From: Psammoneis japonica
Taxonomy: Eukaryota
Length of the DNA: 64,000 nt
Assembly (NCBI GenBank): GCA_008632985.1
Contig: QPGO01000100.1
Span: 176,388-240,387 of the forward strand
Direction of reading: 5' to 3'
The notes under the pieces were generated by a model. That model saw only the letters and a program-made list of their open reading frames with translations. It was not told where the DNA came from and ran no database searches. Made by a program: the position numbers and the translations under genes. This document shows positions 17,653-61,480 of this stretch, in pieces. Position 1 is the stretch's first letter; every line of letters begins with the position of its first letter.

Positions 17653-20600
17653 TCATTGGGGAGTAGAGCGCTTTTTGCAGAATGCACAACGAGGGTTGTC
17701 ACTGTAATATGCTTTTCTGATGATTTCTGCAAGCTGCTCCTCGCTCGTTATTGGTGAAACGACTTGACGACTACCTCCCTGTAGCTGTCCATCTTGTGTG
17801 AGACAACTTCGTTCTTGGAACGAGTGAACTTCTTCTCAATCAGCGATGGGTTCACTCGGATAGAGCCTACTCTGTCAAAGATGTTCTCTCGGCCGACATG
17901 ACGAAAACCCAACCGAGCTGGAGGCATGGCTGTAATAACGTCGCCATCATTTACGATTCTCTGTGTGTTTGGCATTAGTTTGTTGTAGGCCGCTTTGAAC
18001 GAGTGACATCCGACTCTCGGACTTCCATAGCTGTAGCAAGCAATCCTAAGTTTTTCCGCCTGACTGTTTCCTTCGAGCTGCTTTTTAATGGTGGGGAGTA
18101 CATACCGACACATGTCGTAGGCACAAAGGGTGGCCTGAGCCCCTCCAAGGCTATGTCCAGTTAGGAGCAAGCGTCCTGGGCTCGACAGAAGTTCATCTCG
18201 AATAATTGTGTGAAGCTGTCGCCTCACTCGATTATAACTGCTCCAAAACCCAAAGTGAATCTGACCTACGCCTTCAATCCCATCAGAGACCTTGGTTGCC
18301 GATTCTAGATAGTCCGGGACTCCGCCCTGGCCATGTTTTGGAAGAAGATCAATAAGGCGGACCTTCTGAATTTCGCCACTACGAATCTTTGCTTCAATAA
18401 CATCTGGAGAAATGTATTCAATATCGCCAGTGAGATTCTTGCCGATGCAGCATCGTTTGGTTTCAGACGCAGTTAGAAAGTATCCAAGTCGACCAATATC
18501 CTGCTCGACATGAGTCGGTCTGTACTTGCTTCTTTGTCATGGTCCACGAAAGAAACAATGAGGTCGTTTGTCTCCGTGTGTCGCAAAATGAGGACCCGAG
18601 TGTTGTGCATATCAATTCCTTCGGGCTCGGAAACATGAGCGACAACAGTGCAACCCATCTTAAGAGTACTCTCCCAACCAAGGTAGCCAGGAGCACTCCC
18701 GTCGCCGCCTGCGAACCTCATCTGGGTGTATCGGAGGATTTGGAGGTTTCGATTGGATTTGTGTTGTCCGGCATCAACGAGGAGTCCCCTGTGGTACGGA
18801 AATCTGCGCATTCCTGGTCCATCGTCATCGGGAAGTGATCCTTCTGATTCAGTTTGCAAACCACAACGTCCTGCTTCGATACTCGAATTTTCCCCCTTAT
18901 CTTCCTCTTTTTTCCCCAAACTTCCTTTAACAATTTTCACGGCTTTTTCAACACTCGTCACGGCTATAGACTTGGTCTCGGAGCCATTCGCCGGTGCCGG
19001 TTCAGGAATCTGACAATCTGATTCAAACGGAAGGTAAACTTCTTTGGAACAAACCATGAGAAGACGTGCCAATTCTAGAACCATGAGATTTCTTTTTGAG
19101 CCTTGTGTTGCATCGCGATCCTGCTCTTTTTCCGAAACATAGTGAGTCTTTGCCTTTACGATAGACCCACCAAGGCATTCCGGCGGGAGGAACATTCGTT
19201 GAAAGATGACAAAGAACACCAGCCCGAACATCTCGTGGTAGATGCTCGTATACTCACCGTCCAAAAAATGCATCCGGTCAAGTGCAACAACGTAGCTACT
19301 GAGACTATCCATGTGGTCAAAATACTTATCTTCATCGCCGAGGGCGCCAAACATTGAAACCAACATCAAAATGAAAGTTATAAGAATCCAAAGACTAGTT
19401 GCGAAGAAAAAGAACCGCGAGGACAGCTGCATAGGACGAGATAACGCGTACGGAAGAGAGTTGAGCACCCTGCGACTCCGGTTATTGGCCCAAGCATAGT
19501 AGCAAAAACCAAACACCATCAAGAACATCAGAACAGTCATTAAAATCGAGTAGTTTCTCTGCTCTCGATGATGCCAATTCTCTGCAGACGTAACATAACC
19601 CCGACCACCGAGCGAGATGGATGTACCCGGTTCGTCCCACCCCGACACTCGTGCAAAGCGACTACCTTGAGCCAAGCCAAATGTGATGAAGAAAATTATG
19701 CAAAATGCGGCTTTCAATCCGTAGAAGCTCCATCTCGAGCTTACGTATCTCCGTGGCGCGTCCGAAAAGCATGCTCCGTAGAAGAGAGATAAGAGTAGTT
19801 AGCAAGAATAATATGCTGTAATTCCGCCTCTTTCACACACATCATACAGTACATGCTTACCAAGAATGAACATGTTCATTGAGGTTCCGAAACCACCAAA
19901 GATCAGAGAGGCACACCACCATTCTTCGTTGAAAGAGAATTCATCGTTTGCGACCATACTTAGTTGAAGTACAACCGAGATGGGGTTCACGCTGATGATA
20001 AAACCAACTGAGGAAATGAGAAGCCATTTGTTCTCTCTTACCCAATTAGAAACGCTGCCGCAGCTCTTTTGTAGTGTATAAATCCACCACGCAACAAAGA
20101 AAACATATATTGTCAGCACAACTGTGTCTACAATAGCAACGACAAGGGGGCGTGCCTCATCTCCTGATACGACAAATCTCGCTAGGACATCCACGCCCGC
20201 TTCATTCGCCATCAGCGCTTCAGAAACTGCTCCTCCAGGATCTCCCAAAACGGAGAATCTCCAACCTATTGAATCGACAGCCTCTTCACCTGAGAATAAC
20301 AAGAAGCACATACAGTTAGTATCCGAGGCAGTTGCCGAAGAGCAAGTCTCCCAATCTGAGAACTGGAGGAGACCAAGTCTATAGCGAAAGATGCCGCGGC
20401 TGGCGCTTACCTAGGAAATGGGCGTAGAGAGTTACTGTGGCACAAGAGGAGTAAAAGAAATAGATAAGATCAAGCTCGATAGCAATCATGCATATGATCG
20501 AGAAAGCATGGAAAACTTACTTCGAGCTTTGTACAAATTCCCGCGGACGTTCCGCACAGGATAGTGGCTGATTTCATCGTCTAACGCCATCAATCTCCAT

Positions 20601-21580
20601 TGACCAATATCATCGCAGTTCGCTCCACGGAGACATGCATATCCTTCTAATCGAACAGGAAATGGCTCGTCGATCATGCTTTCCGGCCAGTCCGTTCTGT
20701 CGACGCGCTCAAACTCGAAATCGAGGTAAACAACTCGGAACACCCCTCCACTCCCTCCGCGGTAGCCAACCCAAATCGTTGCGACTAAATCATCCCAGTG
20801 CGGATGCAGCTGTGGGTTAGCATGATAGTCCAGGATGGATTTGTCGGTCATAATGAAGGGTGAAGTGTATACTTGATGAGCTAAAAAACTATGGGTGCCA
20901 GGTTTCGCCCCGGTGCCCTCCCAGTCGGAAATATTAATACCTTTTGAAACAACTCCAGTGTTCGCCAGCAATTTAGCTTCATTTGTTGTAACGGCTTCAT
21001 ACGGATCACAAGTAGTTCCATCCGGACGAGGTAAGCAGAGAGGACCGTTCGTGGCATTTGCAGGAAGAATCGCTATCGGAGTATTTCTCGCGGTATTCGC
21101 AATTTCTGAGTTGAGAAGCTCAAGGATCGTTGTGAGGAAGAACATAAAATAAATGAGAAGTATGGCAATGCGGATTCTCTGATTTGACGCAACCTCGAGG
21201 TAAAAGATGTTTCGGGTGAGGAGGTGCGACCCTATGGCTTGGTTCGATGACGCTGGGTTGCTTTCGTCTGGCATAGAATTCTCTTCTTCAGCTTCGCCGA
21301 CATTATCGACCAAAGCTTCTTCGGCGTCCATAGCAAGAACATGACCATCGTCTCGTTCATCATCACCCGCTTCCTCGAAGTCAGCCATGGCACCAATGTC
21401 AATTACTTCATCCTCGGGTGACGCAAAAATTGAAGATCGACGATTTCCTCTGCGGTATTCAGCTATCTTTTGCCTGCGCGCTGAGGACAATTTCTGAGTT
21501 AAAGTGCCTCGCAAAGATTGGTTTCGACGCACATCACCCCGCTCCACTGCACTATTTGAATCATCCGCAGCGGTCGCCAT
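17653..21580 (-). CDS. Multi-pass membrane protein with C-terminal class-3 lipase domain, paralog A (several introns and indels)
   Basis: ORFs 20486-21586, 19799-20311, 18473-19717 and 17748-18227 are collinear with paralog B. Lipase motifs TGHSLGGAQATL, YSYGSPRVG, RIVNDGDVIT and HKMDSY. Confidence 0.75.
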
Positions 21581-22603
21581 TTTCACTCGCTACTACATAG
21601 AGTTCAAGGATGAGAAAAAAAGAGAAGTTGAGAAGTTTGAGAAGCACGGGCGCTTGAGCACGCACAACTCACAACGCGAAATTCAACTTCAAAGCCGAAG
21701 GGGGGGAGAAAAATGAATCCCCGGCTATAGTGACGTCATCTTGAGGCATGTCACCATCTAGCGATAGGAAGATTGAGCGCAATGGTCGGGGACATGATCG
21801 GGGAGGCCCTCTTTCGTGTGCCCTTTGTGTTCAGGACATGTCGAAAGTCGAAAGTGACGGACTCGCGCACACATTCCGTGCGATCTCCGTGGATTCTCGT
21901 TTCCTGTGCGATGTTTTTTGTTTTCAGCCCAGCTCAACTCAACCCCAAAATCGGCTGCCTGCCCACGACGACGAGCAGTTGACAGTGCCTGGTGCGCCAC
22001 TCAGCCCCCACAACCATGGACAGGGTCGGGCAGTGTGCACAACACAAATCGTGCGCAGCTGTGTGGGTGGAGATGCAGCAACAAGCTGGCACTCCTTGCA
22101 AGAGCATCAGCAAGCATGTTGAGTGAAGCAACAGAGCTGTTTTTGCCACTGGCACTGCTTCTGGCCGATGTTGTTTACAGCCCTGATGATCTTCTTCCAC
22201 CAAGACTGCCCCTCCACCAGCCTGGCGAACAACAGTCTGGCATGATGGCGGTGTGAGGTGGGTCAGCTGCAAAACACTCCATGCTTTGCATTTCTTTAAT
22301 GTGCCCACCCAAAGTGCCATGAGCTTGCAGAAGGTTTTCAGCTGATTTGTCAGTGTGCATGGTGATGCCACATGTCCAACGCAACTCTCTGCGGATGGGC
22401 TCTGTCAAACCTGACACCCCAACGCAGCTCAGCTCTCTGATGATCCAAGAGCTTGCATTGCTCTCGTTTCACAAGTGTGCACTCTAACAGAAAGCCATGG
22501 GCAAGCAAGTGCTCTCTAGCCATTTGATCATGTGCCATGAAGGCTTCTTCAACTTGGCTGCACTCTGACCTTGGAAGCACCAAAGAAGTCTCCACATGCC
22601 ATG

Positions 22604-22772
22604 TGACAGACAACCGAGATGGGGAGTGCACTCCCTTGTGTCGGACAGACCAGCACAGACAGCATGGAGAGATCCGATGATCTCTCCTTTGCTCACTTTC
22701 TTTTTCATCTAGCACATGATTGTCAACTGTCCCAGACATCCGTCAGATTGTCCCGATGCCGCTAGTCCACAA
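22604..22772 (+). repeat. 5' LTR
   Basis: TGACAGACAACC...GTCCACAA, with 10 mismatches to the 3' copy by manual alignment. Confidence 0.9.
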
Positions 22773-25284
22773 GGTCATGAGCAGCAGCACGCTGTTCCTC
22801 TTCCTCTGTGCTCCTCCATTGCAGCGCCCACTGTGTGGTTTGGCGACTTTTTCTTCATTGAAATCATCATCATTGTCACAGCCATTTTTTCACCTCTCAA
22901 TTTGTGATCAAACGACCACCGTAGAACACATGCCAGAGCTCTGCACAGAAATTTGATTTTTTCCCACGCAACCATGGTGAACAAAACTCCAAACGCCGTC
23001 GATTTGACCATGATCAAGTCAACGCGGGTTGAATTCAGCCCACACAATTGCTTGCCCGATGCTCACACTTTCCTGAACACCCTTCATTTGGATGCGATCC
23101 CTGCTCCTGAAGATCTTTTGGATGGATTTGCCCCTCAAGGCCCAAAGAACGATGCTGTTGCCATTCTCCGTCACAAGATCGTTCAGAACCTCATCATCCC
23201 TCAAGCTGCACTGACTGCAGATCTTGCACGAATCGGGCCGATCTTTGACAAGGCTCCTCTCTTTGTGGCTGCTCCTCAAGGTTCTCCGGTTTGTCTGAAC
23301 CTCAGCACTCTTCAGAAGGCTGTGATCAAAGCGATCTCGGAAGGTCATGACACCATGACGACACATGCAGGGACTGTTCGTCTCCATTTTCATCCTGGTT
23401 TTCAATCTTGTGATTGTTGGGATGACATGTCTGATGCTCCTTTCCCAGATTCCTCTTCTGCTCCAAGTTCTTCACCTCAGCTGGCTGCCACTTCAGGTGC
23501 CACTCCTGAAGACCTTGCCAAGGCCTCAGCTGCTCATTCACCTGGTCCAAAACAGTTTGAGCAAGCCATGACTAACGCACTGAAGAGTGTTTGTCCTCCT
23601 GCTGAAGATTCAAACATGACTCTGCCTCTGACTGGTGTTCCACACAATGCCCATCCCAAAGGACTTCTTGAGGATGTGCCAGCTTGTGGCCAACAGGATG
23701 CTTCCCCTTCCAGCGACACTCACGGATGCGGGAAAGCTGTTGTGCTTCCCACTGCATCTGTGACCTGTCCTTCGCATTCTCATGGATTTAAGGCATCCAA
23801 GCTGGGCCCAGTTGCTGGGTCTGCTGCATGTGACACTGATGCTGCTGTTGCATCTCATGTTGCAGGCGCACTCGCCATGGACACTTGGATGGATCCTGTG
23901 GATGCTAATTCCTTGACTGTCAAGTCTGCTGTGTCTGTTGTGGAATCCATTGGCAAGCCATCTACAGTTGTTGACACTGGATCCCTTGAACTTCCTGCCG
24001 AATCGACGGCACTTCCTGCCGACGTCCGCTCCTGCCTGCCCAAGACCCCGAAGTTTTTTGTTTCTGGCTGTTCTGCTGTTCCACACAAAGATGGTCACAT
24101 TCACCTCAAGGATGGACTGCCCTCTCTTACCAAGGTTACACCCAAGCTGCTTGCCACCCACATGCCGCTGTCATCTGATGCTTGCGGATGCTGCCAGCAC
24201 TCTGTTGGTTGTCAAGTTGATTCGCACTCGGATTTTTGGTTCGGCCGTTGTCAATTTTGGATGTGCGATGCTGCCATTCCTTCCATCATCCAAACAAGAC
24301 CAATGGAAGCAGGGCAGTTATGAAAGAGGGTCACGGCGTCTTACTGCCTTCTGCCACTCCGTCTCTTTCCTCCGTTGTCAGGATCGTTGTCGTGTCTAAA
24401 AGTGCTTTTCATGGCACTCTGGACCTGTCCACCATCACTGATGATGATCCTTCATTTTCTGATCAAGGGAGGGAGCAACATTGTGCAGAGGAAGTGTGTA
24501 AGTTTGACAATCACACCAACTCTTCCAGCACATCACCTCTTTCCTTCGCTGTCAAGACCGTTGTTGTGTCGAACAGCATTTTTCCTGGTGCTCCCAACCC
24601 ATCGACCATCCCCGATGATGACCCCACATTTGTTGATCAGGGGAGGGATTCCTGTGATGCAGAGGAAACATGTCAGGCTGTTGAGAATTCTGCTTTCCAC
24701 CAAGATGCCTTGCTTGACGACCACGTTTTGAATGCCGTGCGATGCTCACCTGCGATGCGTCACTGTTCTTCCGACGTTGAGCGACTTCATGATGTGCTTT
24801 GTTTCTCCAACATGTTTTTCAAGGGCGACACAAAGTGTGGCAGAAGCATTGGTTTGCCAGGTGGGATGCCATTGCTTCATTTTCAATGTGTCACTCGCCA
24901 TGGTGGATTTCCAATTTTTGGCCCCATCTCTTCCGATGATTTTTGGCGACAGGATGACTCACCAGAATGTCTCTTTGCGGTCGATTGTTTGTGGATTGAC
25001 GAAATTGTTCTTTGGTGCACGACTCAATTTATCCAAAAGATTTGTTGGGAACTGCCTTTGACATTTTTTGTCGAAGACCGATGCGTTGATCGCGGGATGG
25101 ATGTTTCATTCCCAACATGCTCCTCGCTTGATGGGATGTTGTCGTTGATTGTTGTCGTGTTTGTGGACCAAGTCTTGGCCATTTCTTTTGGTGCTCTTCT
25201 TTGTTCTGCTATTCTGGTCCTCTCTTTTTATTCGGATCGTCTCTTTCTTTCTTGTTGAGCATTGCATTGCTCATCAGGGGAGGG

Positions 25285-25453
25285 TGACAGACAACCGAGA
25301 TGGGGAGTGCACTCCCTTGTGTCGGACAGACTGGCACAGACAGCATGGAGAGATCCGATGATCTCTCCTTTGCTCACTTTCTTTCTCATCTAGCACACGA
25401 TTGTCATCTGTCCTGGACATCCATTAGATTGTCCCGATGCCGCTGGTCCACAA
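25285..25453 (+). repeat. 3' LTR
   Basis: Direct copy of 22604-22772, preceded by a PPT and followed by the TSD. Confidence 0.9.
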
Positions 25454-27212
25454 CCATGTGCTCAGTGGTTGAAGCATGCCTGACTTGACATCTGGTGAGT
25501 GCCTGTGTGCTGCTTGGTGAGCCAGTCTTCAAGTCCTTTTGGTTTGTTTGACTGCAGCTTTTGAGCCACAAAGGATCTGCGGTGCAGAACATGACATGTG
25601 TCAGCTTCTGTCTTGCCACAGCAGGGGCATGCTGGGCTCTCAATTTTCCCCTGTGGAGCCAAGTTCTTTTTTGATGCTGTGAAACCAGCTGACCACTTTG
25701 GCTGCCACAGGCAGCGGAATGCAGGACATCTCTGCATTGCCTTTCCAAACGGGTTTTTGTTCAAAAAGTCCATTGTTGAAACGTGCAACGCACCCAAAGA
25801 AGAGCATGTGGAACACATTGACAAACATGGGGATGCAGAATGGAGAGAATGCATTGGGTGGAACAGTGCAATCCTGGTGGAATGGCAAATTTGCGTGGGT
25901 GCCAACCAGTCATTGCCAGCAATGTTCCCAGTGCTGCGCTGCAAATAAAGAGAAGGGTGCGGGTGTGGCATGGCAAATGTGTTGTCTGTGGCTTGCCTTG
26001 AATGGGTGGCAAAGGCATGAGATTGAGACACTTTAGCACGTTCCGCAGAGATGCTTCCCCAAGTCAATCACACTGGTCTTTGTTCATTCTGGGTGGTCAT
26101 CAATGATTTCCTTTCCGCCATTGGGATTCGCTTCACCCCAAGAAGACATGTGTGCACCATGAGAGCCATGTTGTCTGCTGTTTCTTTGCATTTCTCAACA
26201 GCATCCAGGTGTCTGTCAAGGTCGTCAGGATCAACAAGCAGTGTTGCACAAACCATGAGCTTGTCCACCTTGAACAAGGGGTCCTCAGCACTCTTGAATC
26301 CCAAAAATTCCTGAACGCGGAGTGGAGTCTTTGTGCATCTGGTTGTTTCCCACCACCCTTGGTTCACACTGCTTGTCTTTGTCCCATGTCACTCTTGAGG
26401 GCCATGCCACAGACTTGTGTCACTTTGTCCCAATGGTCCAACAAGTGCTTGATGCAAGCATGGCCCTTTTCTGCAGTTCCTCAAGCTCTTGCAGCGCGGC
26501 TGCATGAGGCATGGTTGCAGCGACAAGAAAGGACTGCATCTTGGAAAAAGTCCTTCAGCGAATTTGACAAGGTGTGTTGGGACCAGCCACAAGCTGCGTC
26601 CGCAAGGAAAACCATGATTCCCAACAATGTTGTCAATGCAGCAAGGAAACAAAGGATGCCATTTCACACTGTGTCGCGATCTCTTCCTTTCTCAGCCGGC
26701 CGCACTGGAAGAAGCTCTGCGATGATGCTACGAAGCGTTCGTCTCGTTGCTCATGGCCAGATTGAAGACAGGAAATGGATGTCCGATGTAACCTCACCGG
26801 TGTGTCAGAACTTCAGAACTGAGTCAGAAAGGAGAGATGGACAGACGCTGTCGGAGAGAGATTTCGCTCGCTTTTGGCACGACTCACTGACAGCATCGCT
26901 TATTGCTCTCTACAGTATGTACATGATAGAAGTAGTAGCGCAAGCAGTATTATATATCAAACACGGAACAAGGAGCCAAGCGCTTTTGAGAGAAAGACAT
27001 TCCAATTGGTGACGAAGTGTGGGATGTCTGGGCGATTCTGGCAGTGAAAGCAAGAGAGACGAGTTTCAGTCGTGGATTGCCATTTTGAATTGAAAAAAAG
27101 GAATTCCATTGTGGTCGCGACTGACTCAGTCTATCGCGAAGAATTACACCTGGCACTTCTGTCATCATATTGATTTGAGATTTAGCTCACAATTTCATAA
27201 AATCAAAAAATC

Positions 27213-37119: not shown

Positions 37120-39400
37120 ATTCATTGCATTCAGCAGTGTTTGTGCATCACATCGTGCCATGTCGTGTCGTGCCATGTCGTGTTTTGATGTTTTGGGGTT
37201 GTTGCATCTGCCCTTGTCTTGCTCACAGTCGTTTGTGTCGCATCATGTTGTAGAGCAAGGTGTTGACATTCTATTGTTTGAAGCATTGTTTCTTTTGTCA
37301 GTGATGTGGATTGAGTCGTGGATTGTGATTTGTTCTCATGTCCATTGTGCACGATGCCTTGACTTTGATCTCAACAAAAACAGTTTGAATGGCTTTCATG
37401 TGAACCGTTCCATGCATTTGAAGGGCAAACTAGATTCAATGCAATGTTCTCAGTGTTGTTTTAGCATTTTTCTTGCTCAGCTTTCGTCGCCTGAGCTTTC
37501 CACGCCCAAGCCTTCCTTGCCCGAGCCGTCACCATTCAGACACGCTTGACGCAGACTGTGATGGATTGAACATTGTTCACAGAAGGAGAGCTTTACAATG
37601 TCACAACATTTATTTCTGTAACCCTGGCAGATCCGAATCAGCATCCAGAATTCACAAAGATCCCGCAGTTGCGCGCCAAAATCCCAGTGCGTTTTGCTCA
37701 AGTGGGCACTGCTTTAGAAGAACTTGGAGTTGTGGCACAAGCTGTGGCAATGACATCATCTGGAGAACAAGAGCTTTCAAATGATGTTCTTTTTATTTGT
37801 GACCCTGGCAGATCCGAATCGGCACCCAGATGTTGCGACAATCCCGCAGCTGCGCGCCAAAATCCCAGTGCATTTTGCTCAAGTGGGCGTTGCTTTAGAA
37901 GAACTTGGAGTTGTGGCACAAGCTGTGGCAATGACATCATCTGGAGAACAAGAGCTTTCCAATGATGTTGCTTTTGTTTCCATGCCCCCAACAGATCCAA
38001 ACATTCATCCAGACACCTGCCAACCCCGCAGTTGCGTGCCAGAATCCCAGAGTGAGTTTTGCTCAAGCAGGCATTGCTTCAGAAAGATTTGAAATTATGA
38101 CACAATCAACAGCTAGAACATCATCTACAGAATGAGAGCTTTTTGATGATGTTGCTTTCATTTCCACACCCCTGGAGACAGCAGCGGGTTTGGGAGTGGA
38201 TCGCCCGACGCCCCAATGATGACACTCTGAGTCCACATTGCAACGGCTTTGTGACAGCATGGGCCGCATCCTGCTTGACATGCCACATTGCCCACCAAGC
38301 AATTCAACAAAGCCACCGCAAAATCCTCTGTTGTCAAGCTTTCACATCCACCATCAGGTCCAATGCCACACATTCCACTCCAATTCTCCGTCACTGTCAC
38401 AGCCCATCACGGCGGCCCACCAGTGCACGACAATTGCGCCATGTCGCTTCATCATGGCACAAAGTGGACAGTTGGTTGCCACATCATCTGTGAGCAGTGT
38501 GTCCATGTCAATGAACCTGAGGTCCTCCATCCCCAGCTGTCTGCAACAAGAATCTTCCTTGCGCTGCACCCAACATGATCCGAGTCACGGCACATCAGAA
38601 CCGCTGACTTGGTTTTCCGACCAGCTTGCATGTCAGCTTCCACGGGTGCGACCAAAAAAGGAATGTAGCAGCATTCACATGCTTTGGCACACATTGCAAT
38701 GAACAGAGCTGGAATTCTGGGTGCTGCACTCCCATTCTCCCAAGAATGCCGACGTGCGTGCTCTGCTTCCTTCTCTTTCTGCGGAGCCCCATCGAAACCA
38801 GCTCAATGTCCCACTTGGGCACAGAGTGCAAAAAAACCACCGACTTGTGAAACTCCTGTAGGGAAGGAGTAAAATTCCCATCGCAAAATTGCTCATGATG
38901 CCAAACGGTGCAAACAAATGCAAGTGTGCCGGTGTGAACCGGGGTCTGCCGGTTGCTGAGGTTGGTGAAGGACGAGAATTTCGCTTTTTTGTCATGTTCT
39001 CCAGGGAGCTGATTCAGCAGCTCTTTGATTTCCATTCTAAGTGGCCATTCTTGCTTGTGCGTCCGTGTGTGGCATCTTGTGTGATAAGAACAACATGGTG
39101 AATGCTGTCGCTGCGATGACTGCTGCAGAGAAAAAATCGAAATGCTTTTCAGCTCAAATGCGCTTGACGTACAGTCTGTCCGTCGAACTTGAAATGAATA
39201 AAGGTCTATTCTGTTTTCCTCACTATCATTTGAGTCTTGTCGCATGACTCATCCACCACCCACCCCGCCACGCACTTCTTTTTCGAACTTGTCGCACTCG
39301 CACTTCGCACTTTTGCTTCCTATCCTCATGTCCATGTCCATCACGCCCCTCTGTCCATGGAGTGAACTTGTGGTCAACATTGCAAGAGCAACTTTCACAT
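37120..39400. repeat. TpA-eroded domain 5
   Basis: Strong TA depletion with partial CG retention. Contains the 180-bp tandem array. Confidence 0.55.
37615..38165 (+). repeat. Three tandem ~180-bp units encoding ~60-aa repeats
   Basis: Units start near 37620, 37801 and 37981 (ACCCTGGCAGATCCGAATC...GAGCTTTC.AATGATGTT). The third unit is more diverged. Confidence 0.85.
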
Positions 39401-41849: not shown

Positions 41850-44800
41850 GTTGAAGGGACAACGGCGATAACCCACTCAACTTGAGAGATTTTGCGCCAA
41901 ACCCTGAATGCAAATATTTTGTGCGGACCAACACATCTCAAATTTGGCAACCCAAACCACACCAGTCACCCAACACAAGAAACTCATGCTCCTGGCCACC
42001 AAAGGGAGGCTCCTTCTTTTGGGAAGGTTGGAGTCCCCCTGCACCCAGGGCCTGGACTTGCAGTGCAAGCCAGTTGTTCAGAAAACACAGCCACTGCATC
42101 TTTGGTGACAATGACAAGCACCCTTGTTCTTCTGAGAAAAGGCTTTCTACTTGGCCATCAGCCATGCTGCCCATTTGCTGACCCTTGCTGAGCTTGCTGC
42201 AGCACTTGAATTGCTCATGAGACAATCATGATGAGAATCCAGAAGAAAAAACTCATCCATGGTCTGGCAATTTTAGTGTTGGCATCCTCCAGGGAACAGA
42301 TGGAGAAGCTTGCAGGGCCAGACATGGGTGCTAGAGAGAATCAGGGGTCAGCTCCTCTGACTTGCAACCCACACAACTGGCCTCTTGTGCATTGTTGTGT
42401 GAGCTTTTTTTCAATGAAAGTGTGCATGAGTTGTTCCTGCTCAGTGTCAAATGCTTTGTTGGTGGTGGCACCATCTGCAAAAGTTGCTCCTTTGTGAACT
42501 GAAAAGTGCAATTTGTTGTTTTTTTGTGTGTGTGGTGTGCTGGCAGCAGCAGCCATGGCTTCAAAAAAGCTGACATCAGAAAACCTTCAGTTGGGTGCAG
42601 TGACTTGGTGCAAATGTTTTTGAATGTGCTGCAAGCGGCAATGCAAGAGCAAGCACCAACAGCAACAACAGAGGCAAGCTGGGTGCAAAAAACTCCCTGA
42701 GCACTGGGGCTGTGATGATGACACAAGAACCGGCAGAAGAGAATGAGAGGCAGATCTCAGAGACATCCACTCAGCTGCTCTGTCAATCACATCCAGCACA
42801 GAGTCAGCACGCTGACAACTTTCCCTGATTTGCAGCATTTGTCTGAAAGCAAAAATGGTGCAGGTCAAGGGAAAAAGAAGATTTGCAGCTGCAAACTGTG
42901 TGATGCACAAAGCAGCCAGCCCCTGCACAAAACAACCACAAACAAGGGTAACAGCATCTCCAAAAAAGTCTTTGATGGCAGCATGGCACAGGATGCCAAA
43001 GCACCTTGAACAAAAATTGTTGACAAAAACTGCCAACAGCAGGGGGGCTGGTTTCCAACAAACAATCTTGGTGAGCAACCAAGTCTTGGACCACCCACAA
43101 AGAGCCACAGCAACAAAAACAGTCAAAGCCAAAATGCTGAAGTTTTGCCATGTGAGCTGAGGCAAAGGGGTGTCACCAAGGCAGACAATGCATTAGACAT
43201 GGAGCAAAACAGCAGCCCACCAGATAAATCAGTGCCTTTGCCACACCATTTTTTGCCCCTGAAAAGCACACTCTGTGCAAAGGAAATTCATTGAATGACT
43301 CAATGTTGGAAAAACCTGTTGGGTGTGTGGCAGGTGAGCATTGAGTGATCTCTGCAATGTGGTCACCAAACAAAGCACAGTTGCAGATCCTTGCTCACTC
43401 ACTGAGCTTGCATGCTTTTTCTTTGCTGCACCACTCTCCATTCTTGCCAGGGACCACAGGGTTGTCATTGGCAAAGGGTGGATGGGCCGGGCATGCCACA
43501 AAAAGCACAGCTGGGTGTGACAATGGCTGTGCCAGTGGAGGAAAGAGATTGGACAATGGAGGGCAGTGAGACTTTGTGTGGCCCTTTCTCAGAGTTGCCC
43601 CACTTCTGTCAGTCTTGTTTGGACAAACAAAGCAAGAATGGCAGAGCATCATGCATGTAAATTTGATTGTGGCCAAGCCAAAAATCAGAGTGCACATCAA
43701 CTTGGCAACAAACAAAGCAGTGGCTGCATCTGTGTTTGCCACACAATGGTGCTAAAAGAGGTGGCAAGCAGCACAGTCTCAATCTTGGAGATGGAGGGCA
43801 ATCTGTCCATCTGGTGCATGTTGCACAATGGGTTGACCACGGGCAGCAAAAGTCTTTGGAGAATGGACTGGGCTTTTTGCCTTGACACAAGAGAAATGTG
43901 CCACCAAGCACTGGGCTGGTGGACAATGACAGCAAGCCAGTGTCAATCACTGCAGACAGTGGTGCTCAGTTGCTGCAAGAGACACACAGCAGACTTCTTC
44001 TTGGCACTCATTTGAAAACCACTGACAACATCCAACTGGGAAAACTGACATCCAACACACCTGCAGCTTGAGATGTGTTGTCAGCAGAGCACAGCTGGCA
44101 AGTGTGGGAACCAGATCCAACTTGGAATCTGCAGGCACGTTGGAGCTCAAACAAGAGGTCGCAGATGGGGGAGAATGACAAGTGGACATTGCTGTCAGCA
44201 AACCAAGCTTGATGGCATTCAGCACATGTGGGCATCAAAAGTGGAGGGGAACTCTTCTGGCATGTTGGCACCACCAGCAGCAGGAGTCACAGCTGCAGAG
44301 ACAGGTGCTTGTTTGGCTGGTTTGCACAGATTCTTAGATGCAAAAGGTTTTGCACAAGCACCTCCAGAATGTGCACTGGTGGCCACAATGGGCAATGCAG
44401 TTCCCAAGGAGCAACCATGAACAACTGCATTGCCACAACCACAACTGAGCTGTGCAGCCATGCTGTGCAGCTGCATCCTTTGCAGACATCATGAGGTGAA
44501 GTGTGGTCCAATTGAGTGAACACTTGGACACAGCAGGCATTGCAGCACTTCTTGAAGAGCTGCGAGCAGCAGCCAGGCAAAGGAGATGGTGCCTTGCTGG
44601 GCATTGTGCAGAGCCTCAACAATGTCATCTGCACCATGTGGTGTGAGTTCTTTTTGTCAAATGTCAGAGAAGAAGGTGCACTGATGAGTGTTTTGTCTTG
44701 CAGCATGTGAGAACAAACTTGCTCCAATTCTTGCAATTTGGATGGACTTCAGGGTTGACATGCACATGGTGCACAGAGATTGCAATGACTGCACTTTCTT

Positions 44801-47500
44801 TGTCATGCTCAAGAAATCTTGCTTGACTGCAGTTCTTTGCAGACTTGCAGCACTGAGTCACATTGTCGCACACTTCTCTCCTGGCATCATCAATGCCTTG
44901 AGAGCAGCTTCTTCTGTGATCTTAAAAATGGCAAGTTTGTCAGTGTGGAGTTGCTTGCACACGGCAGAATGCCAGCACTGTCCAGAACAACACAGTCATG
45001 GAAGAGCTTGAGAAATTCATGCTTGGGTTTGGGTTTGGTGCAGCTTGAATCTTACAAGGAAAATTAAGAGCTAAGCTGGGGTTGGCAGGAATCAGGCTCA
45101 GCTTCTCACATCAAGGTGAGAGAGGCATGTTGGAACATTGTTGAAAAGCAAGGTGAATCTCCACACAATGACACAATGGTCAGCCTGGAGCCATCTTGTT
45201 TGTCATTTTGTTTGGTGCCATGGTGGTGTTGGTTGTCAAGAAAAGAGTTGGTTTGCCAACCATCAGAAGGTCAGTGCTGTCCTGTGGCCCAAAAAATGTC
45301 ATGATTCTGAAAAAATCTTGCCAGGAACAGTGCTGAGGCAGACTCAATCAGCCACAACCTGGTCAGAGATGAAAATGGAAACCACAATGTAGAAGAGTTG
45401 GTGCTGTGACACAAAGCAAGGCCACAACCTGTCAGAGTGCCGATGACAGCAACAAGTCCAAAAAGGCAAGCCAGATGCAAAAGACTCCCCAAGCACCAGG
45501 GCTGTGACAACACAAGTGCCAGCAGAAAAGAATGAGCAGTGGACTCATCTCAGAGAATTCTGTCACTGTGTGTGGATCCATTCATCATTCACAGAGTTGG
45601 CACACTGGCACATGACAGAAGCATCCCCAAAGCAGCAAAACACAAGCAGCGCTTGTGCATCACACATTGCTTGCTTTTGTCCCACATGAAAAGGAAACAA
45701 AGAGGCAACAGAGGCAAAGCAACCATCATGAAATGACCAAGCTGCCCAAAAAGAAAAATGGCAATGACAACTGCAAACAGCTGAGGAACTGAACATGACT
45801 GTGACTTCCAACTCCTCAAAGAAAAACAAGTGGCAGTTGCAGAGGCACAGAGCTGCAACTTTTTGAACAGAAGAGACTGTCATTTGGCAAGGAGTGTTCT
45901 GTTCACAGAAAGAGAAAACAGCAGCCATTTGATGACAACAACAACAAACACAGGACAAGCAAGGCTTCTGAGTTCAAGCTCTTGTTGTCAAGTGCAGTGC
46001 TGGTGTGTGCTGCATGCTGTGCTGAACAGAGAGACTCTTGTGAAAGTCATGCATTTGTGGCACATGCAACTCCATGCATCAATGATGGTGTGCAGCTCAC
46101 CTGCACATGTGTCAAAGTTTTCACAATGTGTTGTCTTCGGCCACAGTGCCAAAAAAGTTTCATTGTGCAGACACTTGCCAGTGTGGCTTTTTGTGTTTTT
46201 GCATGCAACACAAGGCTGCAAAACCTGTCAAAGTGCCAACCAATGGCAACACACAGGGGCAAGCTGGTGCAAAAGACTCCCCAAGCACCAGGGCTACAAC
46301 AACATGAGTGCCAGCACAAAAGAGTGAGAGGCAGACTCATTTCACAGTGATCTGCTTGGCTGTCTGGGTTTCTCCATCATTCACAGAGTTTTGGCACACT
46401 GCCATTTGACAGAAGCACCCAAAGCAGCAAAATGCAAACAGCACTTGTGCACCAGTGCACACTGCTGTTGTCTCTGGAAAAGGAAAAACAAAAAGCGGCA
46501 ATGGAAGCAAAATGGCCATGATGAAATTCTCAAGAAAAACAGCAATGACAGTGACAAACAGCTGAGGAACTGAACATTTTGACTTCCACCTCCTCAGAAC
46601 AAAACAGCCAGCAGTTGCAGAGGCACAGAAAGCTGCAACTCTTTGAGCAGAACAGATGCTGTCATTTGGCAGAGGAAGTGTTCTTCTGTTCACAGCAAGA
46701 GAAAACACCATTTGACAACAAACAACAACAACAACAACAACAACACAGCAGCAGCAACAACAACAACAACAACAACAACAAACACAAGATGAGTGAGGCT
46801 GAGCTCAACTTCTTGTCATTGAGTGCACTGCTGTGTGCTGGTGCATGTTGCAAGCATGGAGACTCCTGTTGTGCATGGCTGTTTCAGCTGTGTTGTTGAC
46901 AGAATTTTGCACTTGTGACATGTGCAACTCTTTGCTTCAATGACGGTGTGAGTGCAACCCACCTGTGTGTCAAACTTTCATGATGTGCCATCTGCATCTG
47001 CAGTGCCAAAGAAAGTGTTCATTGTGTGGGAGCACTCTTGCTGCACAGCATGGCTTGTCATGTTTTTGTGCATCTGGCCCATGGCATGGTGCTGTGCAGT
47101 GCATCATCTCCCCTTCTCTTGTTCTTTTGCTTGCCCATCTCTGCTTGATCTGATGTGTTTCAAGGAGCACACACATCCAGAGCTCCCACCAGCTGCATGC
47201 TCACCGTTTTGGTTTTGTTTTTCCAAAAAAGGGAGAGCTGGCTGGTCTTCTCCTCACTCCTGCTCCCCCCCCCCCCCCCCCCCCCTTTGGTTGTGAGAGG
47301 GGTTCTCGCTCTCTCGTTGTTTGCTTGCCACAATGACCTCACCTTTCAGATGCTTCCTTGGGAGACAGCCCCCACAGCCACCACCCGTGGTGTCTTGCTT
47401 TTTTTGGTCAAACTTGTCCTCTCCCCCATCCCACTGCTGAGCTTCACAGTTCTGCCAATGTTTTGCTTTTCAGCTCAAAGGCCGGTGCGAACAGAGAATG
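41850..47500. mobile_element. TpA/CpG-eroded domain 6, including a minus-strand relative of the LTR element's internal ORF
   Basis: Reverse complement of 43640-43735 (CQVDVHSDFWLG) aligns to 24185-24285 (CQVDSHSDFWFG). Near-complete loss of TA and CG. Confidence 0.6.
45420..47030 (+). repeat. Diverged tandem duplication, ~800-bp unit
   Basis: TGCAAAAGACTCCCCAAGCACCAGGGCT near 45476 and 46268. CAGTTGCAGAGGCACAGA near 45834 and 46611. (CAA)n tract at 46717-46780. Confidence 0.8.
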
Positions 47501-47630
47501 AGCAATAAAAAGTGCAAAAAAGTCAAAAAGGAGATAACGGATGACGGTAGGACGGCATCTTTCTCATTTTTTTTCTGCCGCAAGACCATGGCGTGAGTCG
47601 TCACCGCCCGGGAGCGCAGGCAGCGGAAGC

Positions 47631-49555
47631 ATGAAGCATAGAGAGCAATCTAATTGCAACGCCTTGTCGTCATGGACACCCCAAACAACCCGATTGCTAA
47701 AACATGGCGGATCCACAGCTTGGGACGTACTCGATCACGCCATGACGAACAGCTCGGACTCTGATGCAACTTTTACGAATGCATTACGATCTGAATTGGA
47801 AGAATCGGGTCTCCTCGACACCTTGAAAGCTGCACGAACCATGGGAGAAATCAACAATGTGGGCTCTCCTCGGGTTCGTGGTGATTTTAGTACCTTTGTA
47901 TCACGACAAGATCGGCAAACCGCAGACTTTGCACGCAAACATGTTTACTTGTCGCGTCTGATTCAATCCATCGAGACTACTGCTGAACGAGAGCTCGGTA
48001 AGGTCATTACCATTGATCGAAACTACACGTCTGTTCAAGTAGCAAGGTATCCCGGTGATGGCAAGAGTGGGTATAGGCGTCACTGTGATCGAGGCGGTGA
48101 TAACGATAATGAATGTCGTGAAGAAATTCGTAGGGGAGACGCATCGGATAGCAATAACGCACCACAACGGGTTGTAACAGCCGTGTATTATGTGACGCCG
48201 TCCGACTGGAGTGAAACCATGGATGGTGGGTGTTTGAGATTATACGATCGGGATGGGCATTATGATGTTGTTCCTTACTCGAATCGATTGGTAGTGTTCC
48301 GATCCGACCGTGTTTCTCACGAGGTTCTTCCAAGTTTGCGTCGGGATCGCATGGCAATCACGGTTTGGCTGTATGGATGGATCAAAAAGACGCCACAGAA
48401 TCCCTTCTTGTTAGCCCCTGCTGTGGCAGCTGATGCAGAGTCGTCCAACGAAATTTCTACAGACCAACCCGGTGGACCACCACCGCTACCTATCCGCAAA
48501 GCTACCACCAACGCGGATGACAAGAAGAAGACAATCTTTGTGTCTATTGCATCCTACTGCGATTCGGAGTTATTACCCACGTTGATTTCTCTCTTTGAAT
48601 CAGCTAGGTACCCCGAACGTATCTACGTGGGTGTCGTTTGGCAGGTGGACGCGGCCGTAGAGGATTTCAATGCCTGTTGTTCCAACAGGCTTTACAAGAA
48701 GCAATGGTTTTCTCCCTCACAGATTCGAGTCTTGACCATGCATGCTCAACACGCACAAGGACCGTGTTATGCTCGATACTTGTGCCAATCCTTGTGGAGA
48801 GATGAACAGTACGTCTTGCAAATTGATTCGCACATGAGATTTCGAAACAACTGGGATTCCTATCTGGTTGAGCAATTGGAATCGTTACCCGAAGAGAAGT
48901 GTATGCTTACTTCGTATCCTGTTGGATACAGTTTGCCTAATGAGATCCCCAATGAAACACGTGGAACACTGTTGGTACCTTGGAAGTTTGACGAGAATGG
49001 CATGCTGCGACAGCGTGGACGATTGATGAAGGAACGACAGACTTGCACTCCGTGCCACCTGTACGCTGCCGGATTCAATTTTGCTCGTTCCCAGGTGCTA
49101 TGGGATGTTCCCTATGACAATCGTTTGAATTACTTGTTTTTCGGGGAAGAACTTTACATGGCCGTGCGGCTCTATACGTTTGGGTACAACTTGTACGCCC
49201 CTCCAGAATCCGTGTGCTACCATTTGTGGAGTCGTCGTCATCGACCGACTTGTCGAGTTGAATCGCCACGAGAAGCAGAGCTGAAACGGACGAGTCTAGA
49301 GTATGTCAAGGATGTAATGCGTGGAAAGCATGAGATTGGAAGTCACCGAACTGTGCTACAATTTCAACAAGTCCTGGGCGTCGATTTCGAAGCGCAAACA
49401 ATCGAGCAAGATGCAGAAAATGGTGCGCTGGACTCCATCGATTTTGCGGCAAACGCCAACGGATTGTTTGCATCGATAGAGCACGAAAAAGAAGAAGGCG
49501 CAGCAGCGCTAGACCCAAGGCTCAGGCTCTGATTGCTTCATTCCTAGGTTTATAA
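47631..49555 (+). CDS. Fusion of PhyA/EGLN-type prolyl 4-hydroxylase and Gnt1-type (GT60) Skp1-hydroxyproline GlcNAc transferase
   Basis: N-half: RVRGD, VARYPGDGKSGYRRHCD, VTAVYY, GGCLRLY, NRLVVFRSD, HEVLP and RMAITVWLY. C-half: TIFVSIASYCDSE, GPCYAR, LQIDSHMRF, AAGFNF, LFFGEE and YHLWSR. Continuous ORF 47541-49532, with a probable terminal indel extending it to TAA 49555. Confidence 0.88.
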
Positions 49556-49735: not shown

Positions 49736-52700
49736 TCATCCATAGTAACCCTTTCTGATGGTATCCAAAAGCTGCGTCTCGTCAGTAACTGGATCAAATG
49801 ACTTCACAATCACATCTCTGTAGCTGTCCATCTTGTGTGGCGTAACTTCATTTTTTGACCGCAAGAACTTTCTCTCAATTAGCGATGGTTTCACACGGAC
49901 AGAGCCAACTCGATCAAAAATATTCTCACGGCCGACATGGCGAAAGCCCATGCGAAGCGGAGGCATTGCTGTGACTACGTCCCCATCGTTCACGACCCTC
50001 TGAGTGTTTGGCATCATTTTGTTGTACGCCGCTCTAAATGCACCGCATCCAACCCGTGGGCTTCCATAGGTGTAGCAAGCAATCTTGATACTCTCCTTTC
50101 GGTTACTTTCCTCAAGCTGATCCGAACTGTGGGAGTACATACCGACACATGTCGTAGGCACAAAGTGTGGCCTGAGCCCCACCAAGGCTGTGTCCCGTGA
50201 TGAGTAGTCGTCCCGGACTTGCAAGGAGCTCCTCTCGAACTATTGTGTGCACCTGCCGCCGGACACGGTTATAGCTACTCCAAAAACCAAAGTGTATCTG
50301 ACCAGCCCCTTCGATCTCATCTGACCTTTGGTGGCTGATTCGAGATAGTCCGGAACCCCACCCTTGCCATGTTTGGGAAGAAGATCAACCAGACGTATCT
50401 TCTTAATTTCGCCCCTACGAATCTTTGCCTCAACAACATCTGGAGAAATGTATTCAATGTTGGCAGTGCGTGTCTTCCATGTTCCGCATCTTCTGGAGCC
50501 GAAGTCGTGAGAAACGTGTCTAAATCCACCAAGACCTTGGACGACATCACATCAGTTTGCACCTGTTTCTTGGTAAGGGTTCCGCGAAAAGCGATGATAA
50601 GATCGTTCGTTTCCGTGTGCCTTAAAATGATTGCTCTGGTGTTATGCATATCTGTTCCTTCGGGTTCAGCCACATGGGCCACAACGGTGCATCCCATTTC
50701 CAAAGTGCTTTCCCAAGGGAGATAGCCTGGAGCGCTACCAGAACCACCTGCGAACCTTGTTTCACGTTCCTGGTCTTGTGTCCCTTGCGACGAACTATCG
50801 ATGTCCTTAGACTTGTTCTCTTGGGCAGAAGAATTTGTCGGCGTCGTCTCAATATCTTTACCGAGAAACTCCTGATTTGTAATTTCTGACGAATCACGCG
50901 AGACTTCTTCAAAAACTGGTCTCTTCCTTCTGAGCTGCCATTCCTTGAAATTACAGCAGTGACGGGTTTCTTCTCCACACCTGGCTTCTCTTTTGCTTTC
51001 ACGTCTGGGCTTTCACAATCTATTTCAAATGGTAAATAAACCTCTTTTGAACAAACCATCAATAGCCGTGTCAACTCGAGAATCATGAGAGATTCGCTGA
51101 ATCTCCGTCTTTCTCTGCCTCTTCTTCAGAAACATAATGTGTCTTTGCCTTCTCACTTGACCTACCTAATGATTCCGGCGGGAGGAAGAATAATTGGAAA
51201 GTAACGAAGAACACGAGCCCAAAAACCTTCTGGTAGAAACTTGTAAAACCACCATTCAAAAAATACATTCGATCCAATGAAGATACGTATTTACCGAGAG
51301 TGTCGAGGTGCGCGTAGTAAACTCTCTCATCCACAATGACGTCAATCACATTCACAATGATCATAATGAACTCCACAAGAACCCAGAGACCAGTTACCCA
51401 GAAAAAGAAACGTGATGACAGCTGAATGGGACGACTCAAGGCGTATGGTAGGTAGTTGAGCACCCTTTGACTCCTTCTGTTTGCCCAAACGTAGTAACCA
51501 AATGCAAAAACATTAAGAGCCAAGAGGAGTGTCAGAAACACAGATATAATCACTTGATCCCTGCGAATCCAATCTTCAGGAGCTGTAACATAACCCTGAC
51601 CACCGAGCTCGCTTGCAGTACCCGGTTCGTCCCAACCCGATATGCTGGGAAATCGATAAACATGTGCTAGAGCATATGTCACGAATAAACAGATACAGAA
51701 CAAACTTTTGCACCCGTAGAAGCTCCACTTTGAAACCACGAATCGCCTAGGCGCGTCGCAGAAGCAACCAAATACAAAGTAGAGCAAAGCCTGTCCAAAC
51801 GCCCCGACAACAAAAGCGGCAACCCAAGCCCCCTCGGCCAAAACTGCGTCTTCGTTACGTTGTCTGCGAAATTGCAATCCAACAATGATCGGGTTCACGC
51901 TCAAAATGAATCCGACGGAGGATACGATGAGCCATTTATTTTCTGTTGCCCACTCTTTGCATCTACCGCATATCTTGTAGATACTGTAAAACCACCACAG
52001 AACAAAAACGATGTATGCAGCCAGCACAATGGTGGTAACAATAGAGTCGGCAATCGGGTATTTCGCCTCTCCGGATATAACTAGGCTTGTCAGTATAACG
52101 CTGTCGGTATTGTTTGCCAATAAGGCTGTAGAAACTGCGCCACCAGGATCCCCCAAAAGTGCAATCCTCCATGCAAGAGAGTCTATTACCTCCTCACCCA
52201 GCAAATACACATACACAACGACTAGAGGGAGTAAAAGAGAAGCAAGTACACATTGGAAATTAGACGCTTTCTGATGAATAACAAGTGACGATACAAAGAG
52301 TAACAGTCTCGCTTACCTCGTGCTTTAAACGATCTCCCACTGACTTGCCGCTTGGGAGAGCGAATATTTTCATTGTCAATGACCATCACTCTCCAGTTGC
52401 CAATATTGTCGCAATCCTCTCCACGGAGGCACCCATATCCCTCAAGACGAACAGAAAACGGTTCATCTGCAACACTTGCGGGCCAGTCCTGCTCGGCAAA
52501 AAACTCTAAATCAACGTAAACCACATGGAATTCATCCCTCGCATCCCTCCCTTTTTGATAGCCAAACCAAGCCATGGCGACAATATCATCCCAGACAGGA
52601 TGTAGCTGTGGGTTTGCACCATAGTCAAGAATAGAGTGGTCAGCCAAAAAGACTCCAGAGTCAATCTGGTGAGATGTAAACGGTGGAGTACCCTGTATGG

Positions 52701-53442
52701 CCCCATATCCTTTCCAGTCGGACACATTGATTCCCGTCGAGACAACTCCAGTGTTTGCCAGTAGCACTGCTTCACTTGAATTAACGGTATCATAAGCAGT
52801 GCATGTTCCATTTGGAAGGAGCAAACAGAGTGGACCAGACGTGTCATTTACGGGAACAATCGCACTTGGACGGAATTCCGAGCGATTTCCATAGACACTG
52901 AGAACCTCAAAGATAATCGAGGCGAAGAATACCGCATGGACAGCGTAAAGAGCCCTCCGAATCACGTGATTTGGAGCAACCTCGAGATAGAATATGTTGC
53001 TTGTGAGGAGATGCGACCCCACAGCTTGATTTCCAGCCTTTCCTCTACCCTCAGTCAGTTTGGGAAGTTCTGCTTCTTCCACATCATCAGCTCGTACAGG
53101 GATTTCAGGCTTTTGTTCCGAAACAGAGAGCTGTTCCACGTCATCAACATCAGCCCCTCCAGATACTTCTTGATCTTCTTGCGAAACAGGAGACAGCACC
53201 CCAGCGTTATCATCCCGTTCCTCTGCATCTGCTTCTTCGAAATTAGCCATACTACCAATATCGAGCACTATTTCTTCACTAACCAGTCGCTGTGATGACA
53301 CAAAGCGTCCTTTTGATTCGATATCCTCTGCTGCTGTCTCACGTCTTCGTCGTGAGGTCCATGCTCGTGAAATGCTCCCTCGTAGACTAAAATTTGTACT
53401 CTCCATCTCATCAGGTTCCATATCTGACAACTTGCTACTCAT
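49736..53442 (-). CDS. Multi-pass membrane protein with C-terminal class-3 lipase domain, paralog B (intron near 52222-52316, indels)
   Basis: Shares NQAVGSHLLT.NIFYLEVA, ANPQLHP.WDD, SGWDEPGT and LPYALSRP.QLSSRFFF with paralog A. Lipase motifs AFRGT, TGHSLGG (near 50180, off-track frame) and YTYGSPRVG. Confidence 0.78.
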
Positions 53443-53819
53443 CTTGCATACAGCTAGAGCTAAGAGGAAACAATCTAATGCAGTACATACAGTAATGAGA
53501 TGCGAACGCCATGTTGGCAACGTTGATGTTGTTGTGTCTTGTTGCTTCGTTCGATCTTTTTTTTTCTGCGAAGTACATCGGACGGTTAAATGACGTCATC
53601 GCTTCTTCAAAAGTTCCCTCCGACAGGCGTCAGTCGCCTTTTTGACCACGCGAGAACCCAATGTTTGTGTGAAAGTGCCGACCAACGCCACTGCAGACGA
53701 CAGCTGCTGTGGTTACCGCACTTGATTGAACGACATCACCACCGTGTCGTCGTCGCAATTGCATATTTTTTTGTCGGACTTGGCGGTTCAACAACAACTT
53801 TCTCAGCATTCAAAAAATC

Positions 53820-60900: not shown

Positions 60901-61480
60901 AATTGGGGAGTGGAGGAGGAGGAGGAGGACAACAAAACATTTTACAAGGCAGGCAGCTCCAGGTGCTGACTGCAGCAACCAGCTTTTGCACAAGACAACA
61001 GGTGCCAGCCTGCAATGTGTGAGCAAAAATGCACTTGTTCTGAAGAGAAACACTTGCCACCATTGTGCCAAAGAAATTTTGATGAAGTTGACACCAAGTT
61101 GAAAGCACTCCAAAGCATGATGGAATTTCTCCATGCTGGGAACATGCCAAGAACAGAGACCCAGTTGCCGGGCATTTGCAAATTGTGGAAAGCCATTGCA
61201 AACTGTGACAGACCTTTGTTTCCACTTTCACCATGTGGCAAACTGTTGCTGTCAATTGCAAAATGGCAGCACCACCACAAAGGCCCTGCTGGTGAAATGA
61301 TGACTGAGGTGCTTGCTCTCACTGCCTTCTTCTCTTCCAAGTTTGGGCCCATGTGGCTCCAGCGGCACCAGCAGCTGGCTGCACTGCAAGTTGTGAGCAC
61401 TGCACTGCACCGCTCATGGCACAGGGCCAAGAACTCAGCCAGGTTGAGGAGCACCTGATGCCCAGTGCTTGCAGCATGAC
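54930..61480 (+). repeat. Tandem ~3.1-3.5-kb duplication (54930-58400 / 58410-61480) with internal sub-duplication and inversion
   Basis: 54931-55180 matches 58413-58680. 55880-58400 matches 58945-61480 (TTTTGATGAAGTTGACACCAAGTTGAAAGCACTCCAAAGCATGATGG near 58004 and 61077). 55180-55460 matches 55600-55900. 58740-58940 is the reverse complement of 55200-55405. Confidence 0.85.

Follow-up and report, generated by a model that had tools for sequence, protein, structure and literature searches.

The window, i.e., the complete 64-kb stretch of DNA analyzed here, harbours at 22604–25453 an LTR retrotransposon on the + strand, flanked by the 5-bp target-site duplication (TSD) CCATG (22599–22603 and 25454–25458, delimited by TSD comparison). 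Its two LTRs of 169 nt (22604–22772 and 25285–25453) have TG...AA ends, and only two TA steps survive in the 5' LTR, both in CTAG. The 5' LTR is followed by a putative primer-binding site (PBS; 22773–22783), assigned by position and carrying a TA→CA change at 22776–22777, an open frame of 471 codons in gag position (22908–24323), a second open frame of 345 codons (24221–25258) and a polypurine tract (25276–25284) that is also found before the 3' LTRs of other family copies. Neither open frame has a Pfam match; the second encodes a single tyrosine and the first none, as compared to 8–29 tyrosines in five host frames of 367–716 codons. No tRNA genes were found within the window.

The element represents a 2.85-kb form devoid of the integrase/RT region (pol) present in the 6.9–7.2 kb copies of its family. 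At least one further copy of this form aligns end to end with it at 87 %, and at least 40 LTR matches are contained in the 91.4-Mb eukaryotic assembly (40 scored of 132 candidates). Where named, the relatives of a gene from the window belong to diatoms. Full-length copies display matches to the integrase region and RVT_2 in copia order, though below curated cut-offs, e.g., L031, in which the integrase precedes RVT_2 within the region missing from the window copy. L037 is a tandem element with three LTRs within one TSD. The Ty1/copia hallmarks LTRs, TSD, PBS and polypurine tract are all present in the window element, except for the TG...CA termini, as LTRs of the window family end with TG...AA when judged by TSD position; a TA at this LTR end (22770–22772) resolves to CA or TG in the family. 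The CoDi Ty1/copia elements of diatoms (PMC2806351) share the integrase-before-RT order and the RVT_2 match of the full-length family copies as well as the 5-bp TSD, and TG/CA ends are also missing in some CoDi families. In contrast to these elements, the window copy lacks pol, and the likeness is drawn at the level of Ty1/copia rather than of a group.

Ungapped alignment of the window LTRs yields 10 mismatched bases. Realignment agrees with the original prediction that eight of them are transitions in pyrimidine–purine (YR) steps, and all sequence contexts quoted therein are correct: two CA/TG mismatches (22651–2 and 22733–4) and single-base TG/CG (22717), CG/CA (22742), CA/TA (22744) and TA/TG (22764) mismatches. 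The other two are a non-YR T/C transition (22704) and a transversion-type A/T mismatch (22726). This single pair is weak evidence, since 80 of the 169 positions lie in YR steps (probability that 8 or more of 9 transitions fall in YR, 0.013). Comparison with family copies resolves the eight YR mismatches into six bases derived from four TA sites and two derived from CG decay: among 32 LTR copies, four mismatch columns show TA, CA and TG side by side but no CG, and CG predominates at two. Where these three dinucleotides share a column, the simplest explanation is a TA, originally present, that could be resolved in either direction. The proposed TA→CA change in the PBS (GGTCATG) was confirmed as well, with GGTTATG kept in 1 of 16 elements, GGTCATG present in 6 and GGTTGTG in 9; thus, the PBS TA was also resolved both ways.

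The anticipated enrichment of YR-type and TA-involving mismatches among LTR pairs of this diatom genome is present, the sample being picked by LTR or RT similarity rather than comprising every pair: 489 of 553 mismatches in 49 pairs are YR-type. The window family contributes 176 of 192 mismatched bases in YR columns (15 pairs, two of which are one insertion, after removal of a pair whose 3' LTR is interrupted), and other copia families contribute 313 of 361 (34 pairs, after removal of 3 whose TSDs do not match); in 226 of these, TA is directly opposed to CA or TG. By comparison, YR-type differences amount to only 154 of 777 between host paralogues in the window and to 19 of 91 at the duplicated dCMP-deaminase locus. 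The reading of a YR enrichment thus survives, with the refinement that the YR class mixes a fast TA-specific process with an approximately tenfold slower CG decay, which the original prediction did not separate. As only 64 of the 553 mismatches lie outside YR steps, the suspected inflation of LTR ages is supported, LTR divergence exaggerating the background change by a factor of about 4 to 9 (the lower figure takes the YR share, 47 %, from the window LTR alone). LTR ages should moreover level off once TA runs out, rendering LTR dating in such genomes non-linear as well as inflated.

The direction of change is fixed as TA→TG/CA by the young family A, which served as polarity reference with three nearly unedited copies, two of them with identical LTRs. 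At the 262 TA columns common to these three, 12 TSD-matched copies carry TA 1626, TG 840, CA 651, CG 8 and other dinucleotides 19 times. Within the hit zone, defined by at least half of TA being hit so that the TA rate is conditioned on TA hits, transitions per base amount to 1306/3235 for TA (0.404), 204/4747 for CG (0.043), 70/4614 for AA (0.015), 63/5601 for CA (0.011) and 36/5749 for GA (0.006). TA is lost first and CG decays afterwards: young copies drop TA while their CG counts stay unchanged, and the same older insertion on two contigs differs by 68 CG-type versus 10 TA-type bases in 6.5 kb.

The base 3' of the edited A modulates the rate, with C (657/1213, 0.54) ahead of T (394/923, 0.43), G (216/784, 0.28) and A (131/714, 0.18), i.e., TAC > TAT > TAG > TAA. 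At asymmetric TAY/TAR columns, the TAY strand is mostly the edited one in 75 of 91 cases, and the minor non-TA A>G changes also lean toward 3' C/T. The 59 TA surviving in three window islands fit this polarised code, as none resides in ATAT, GTAC or ATAC/GTAT and TTAA, CTAA/TTAG and GTAA/TTAC are commonest. ADAR prefers a 3' G, and the motif of polymerase eta is WA, both TA and AA being mutated. Both fit the context code worse than TadA. Hit rates and survivors display the 5' T and 3' pyrimidine preference expected of TadA/ADAT2-type DNA deamination: for TadA editors, a T 5' of the A and a C 3' of it are favourable and a 3' A is unfavourable (PMC8989541), and one engineered TadA variant prefers YAY over YAR (PMC12528748). 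The code may serve as a yardstick for candidate enzymes.

That the process acts after integration and on both strands, as originally proposed, is borne out by an edited TSD, by stripped low-copy flanks and by copies that were hit largely independently. Among 15 pairs of 5-bp TSDs, 13 are identical, one reads CTTAA/CTTGA and one differs by a transversion. At shared hit sites most copy pairs agree on direction at only about 50–65 %, which indicates largely independent editing, and palindromic contexts yield 164 TG versus 178 CA. Same-strand runs of edits above the null were not found (879 of 1678 adjacent pairs versus 869 ± 17, in 15 copies of which three were later dropped); hence, no processive single-strand burst is seen. 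Family-A elements with unmatched TSDs (L083, L084, L094) were dropped. L085 and L088 had been considered as alleles, one with about 150 extra edits, until L085 was recognized as a chimera of two loci and dropped; all four chimeric or TSD-mismatched elements (L085, L083, L084, L094) are either recombinants or assembly chimeras.

In the window, genes have a TA o/e of about 0.4–0.9, and several islands have 0.01–0.1 with CA/TG raised to 1.5–2.1. The element lies in a TA-stripped domain (21801–26800) with 26 TA in 5,000 nt, as compared to about 40 TA per kb in neighbouring genes; the domain extends into the flanks by about 0.8 kb and 1.3 kb, the 3' flank being low-copy (4 matches). Two older islands, at 42001–47000 (o/e 0.01–0.06 for TA and 0.03–0.08 for CG) and, in repeats, at 55001–64000, are stripped of both TA and CG. 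TA-poor DNA also contains a 181-nt tandem repeat (37609–38172) and a tandem duplication of ~3.05 kb with internal inverted repeats (54983–61221). A lipase-containing gene block duplicated 32 kb apart (17757–21589 and 49796–53595) is old (71–82 % identical) and not TA-stripped, and a single frame at 47538–49532 combines a 2OG-Fe(II) oxygenase with a GlcNAc-transferase domain.

Family A is hit hardest just 3' of the 5' LTR (0.70–0.79 at 0.5–2.5 kb, 0.19–0.20 in the last kb). Copy by copy, the hit rate is higher in the 5' part than in the 3' part in 10 of 12 cases (one marginally) and lower in two; RT score, a criterion biased toward copies with an intact 3' half, was used to choose four of the 12, and the other eight comprise five clear cases, one tie and two reversals. 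In three copies the upstream flank is TA-rich and the 5' LTR spared while the interior is largely edited, and in one copy a TA-poor downstream flank adjoins an untouched 3' half, indicating that tracts can start inside the element. In family C, 5' LTR and leader are retained longest. A universal 5'-to-3' polarity was rejected because family A is hit 5' first whereas family C keeps its 5' end longest, and spread from neighbouring old repeats fails to account for family A; the starting point of tracts depends on the family. In the coding region of family C (L072–L075, L095–L098), TA columns are scarce even in the copy edited least (TA o/e 0.48 versus 0.69 in family A), perhaps due to inherited erosion or avoidance.

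Overall, TA is removed after insertion, on the chromosome, on both strands, copy by copy, close to saturation, before CG decay and preferentially with a 3' pyrimidine. As explanation, a targeted process on integrated transposon DNA converting TA to TG/CA via TadA/ADAT2-fold deamination is proposed, to which about an even chance is assigned. A host process would act on domains several kb long, mutating transposon DNA that has integrated; there, a TadA/ADAT2-fold enzyme recruited to silenced chromatin may deaminate the A in T-A-Y to inosine, which would be fixed as G at replication. A slower CG decay, attributable to deamination of 5-methylcytosine, then acts in the same domains. Elements would be disabled by missense changes (Tyr to Cys/His) and PBS damage with no stop codons being made and frames staying open.

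The assembly encodes an ADAT2-like and an organelle-type TadA gene, two ADAR/ADAT1-type domains and dCMP, guanine-type and RibD-type deaminases (the last two labelled by motif reading). The two ADAR/ADAT1-type domains belong to two genes rather than one (L199, L201). P0121 (L055:313–1785, − strand) combines a domain resembling guanine deaminases with a 2OG-Fe(II) dioxygenase, the best solved relatives of which include thymine dioxygenase, probably pointing to free-base salvage. Several C5-methyltransferase genes are present; those in L189, L190 and L191 lie in TA-stripped DNA, some with stops, and are possibly mobile-element cargo. ADAT2 is a housekeeping tRNA editor. Among at least nine, five and four matches of three deaminase families, no extra or chromatin-fused deaminase paralogue was found; judged by sequence, the candidates appear to be housekeeping-type ADAT2 and TadA, with none standing out as dedicated. 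The deaminase model is thus adopted because of chemistry and context.

Sequence alone cannot separate a modified A from a modified paired T, and the motif reads equally well as R-T-A on the T strand. A post-integration base modification at TA by an unknown writer, i.e., an oxidised thymine mispairing with G (as does 5-formyluracil) or N6-methyladenine later deaminated, is a somewhat unlikely alternative; the missing strand bias and processivity suit a mark on duplex DNA. However, it leaves the likeness to the TadA context unaccounted for, the sole thymine-dioxygenase-like protein seen resembles free-base enzymes, and a search for TET/JBP gave no match, but its controls were blank as well. Error-prone repair, in which polymerase eta would resynthesize a patch after deamination of 5-methylcytosine and thereby mutate A in WA, could explain why the hit zones also show more CG decay (private changes in six copies: 28/1732 for the 5' part, 2/564 for the 3' part) and why AA and CA changes are slightly raised, too. 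This route is improbable, since TA exceeds AA 27-fold and CG about 9-fold, whereas polymerase eta mutates both TA and AA; moreover, TA is gone while CG is still intact, and strand clustering is absent.

Editing prior to integration, either ADAR-like on element RNA or APOBEC-like on cDNA, would agree with the two ADAR/ADAT1-type deaminase genes and with the overall excess of TG (840) over CA (651). This sense-strand bias is accounted for by context, as it is gone in palindromic contexts, and both outcomes are interleaved within single copies. RNA editing leaves both LTRs alike and thus predicts matching LTRs; furthermore, host-derived DNA was edited (one TSD and flanks), which already contradicts pre-integration editing and makes it highly improbable. 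Ordinary drift, in which CpG decay is joined by GC-biased conversion or by selection disfavouring TA, or else faulty base calling at modified TA might be suspected because TA is mildly under-represented in genes as well (o/e about 0.4–0.9). This explanation can hardly be credited, being already contradicted by the context-specific rates, by host paralogues with only 154 of 777 YR-type differences and by the destruction of conserved tyrosines. Two contigs that share an insertion are 98.2 % identical, hence edits are inherited, and contigs of run X1 carry the TA-poor 3' flank (25454–26120) with 8 differences in 667 nt, which argues against a base-calling artefact even though run X1, used as check, may be the window's own sample, with the sequencing technology not on record. 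Among the matches listed (40 of 214 rows), 12 of 17 stripped-flank differences versus run X1 are YR-type, and the comparison suggests that the process ran after the split of two haplotypes or strains.

Conversion of TA to TG or CA cannot make a stop codon, which fits the long open frames among 150 RT matches. Edited copies carry a damaged PBS and conserved tyrosines replaced by Cys/His. Dead elements retain long open frames that appear intact, and the recoding of tyrosines may mark the process elsewhere at the protein level. Among 175 relatives of copia pol, Cys/His replaces 8–11 of 14–17 conserved tyrosines in four proteins, which form three clusters, as compared to 0–2 in 167 and 3–4 in four others. 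Further substitutions in the four proteins, V>A, I>V, T>A and L>P among them, match the expectation. P0132 and P0137, the two checked, are not encoded in the window's assembly (best matches 64–72 % and at most 63 %); the third cluster consists of P0170 and P0245. Three copia protein clusters thus carry the same recoding, at the protein level only. None of 80 metagenome loci contained a 600-nt stretch with TA o/e <0.2, and at most 3 of 17 conserved tyrosines were changed in any of them; this carries little weight, as the search patterns contained tyrosines and copies are prone to collapse in metagenome assemblies.

One may tentatively speculate, at rather less than even probability, that diatoms and probably other SAR protists possess a natural TadA/ADAT2-fold adenine base editor as genome defence, which would nucleate in newly silenced retrotransposons, spread over kb, act on T-A-Y on both strands and kill by missense as a mirror image of RIP, beyond this genome. 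A natural DNA adenine deaminase would, if true, matter for base editing. TadA-derived adenine base editors share A→G conversion in DNA, the favoured 5' T and 3' C and the disfavoured 3' A. Unlike the diatom process, they are engineered and Cas9-targeted, the YAY match concerns engineered variants, and their T preference is much weaker than the 27- to 60-fold preference found here.

RIP of fungi resembles the diatom process in dinucleotide-specific transitions on both strands of repeats, post-insertion action and graded edges. RIP converts C to T, makes TA from CA/TG and creates stops, is triggered by pairing of duplicates and needs RID/DNMT4 and a sexual cycle. The chemistry is opposite: in the diatom, TA is not raised by C>T but is the substrate and lost, and no stops are created. 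Unlike in RIP, nearly identical multicopy elements can be untouched, as are almost entirely three multicopy young family-A elements (which may simply be new), and low-copy flanks are hit. Diatoms do possess DNMT4 enzymes related to RID (PMC9998398).

The closest counterpart was described in Bigelowiella natans, where NCLDV and virophage DNA integrated in the genome undergoes A>G/T>C hypermutation at TA only (Mettrop et al., bioRxiv 10.64898/2026.01.13.699255). There, two viral regions were followed in mutation-accumulation lines, with TA partly depleted (rho 0.45), a rate about 1000 times the genome baseline and transposon domains enriched among TA-poor coding sequences; ADAT2 was proposed, not shown. 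Both systems convert TA to TG/CA in either direction, in silent or foreign DNA and patchily between lines or copies. As in Bigelowiella, A>G/T>C transitions are confined to TA, giving TG and CA; foreign or mobile DNA is hit and host genes are spared, low-copy flanks being hit here, too; and integrated DNA is affected unevenly among copies. They differ in that Bigelowiella is a rhizarian with viral inserts, whereas the diatom process strips LTR retrotransposons to TA o/e of 0.01–0.1, is followed by CG decay and prefers TAY; in the preprint's main text, the words diatom, LTR, CpG, context and flank are absent. In the literature searched, which excluded most subscription journals, the Bigelowiella preprint was the sole relevant match, and no account of TA hypermutation in diatoms was found. 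The diatom process thus works like that of Bigelowiella and as a mirror image of RIP, failing the defining chemistry of the latter, and extends to the transposons of a diatom, near saturation, a signature that a single preprint reports for one rhizarian alga.
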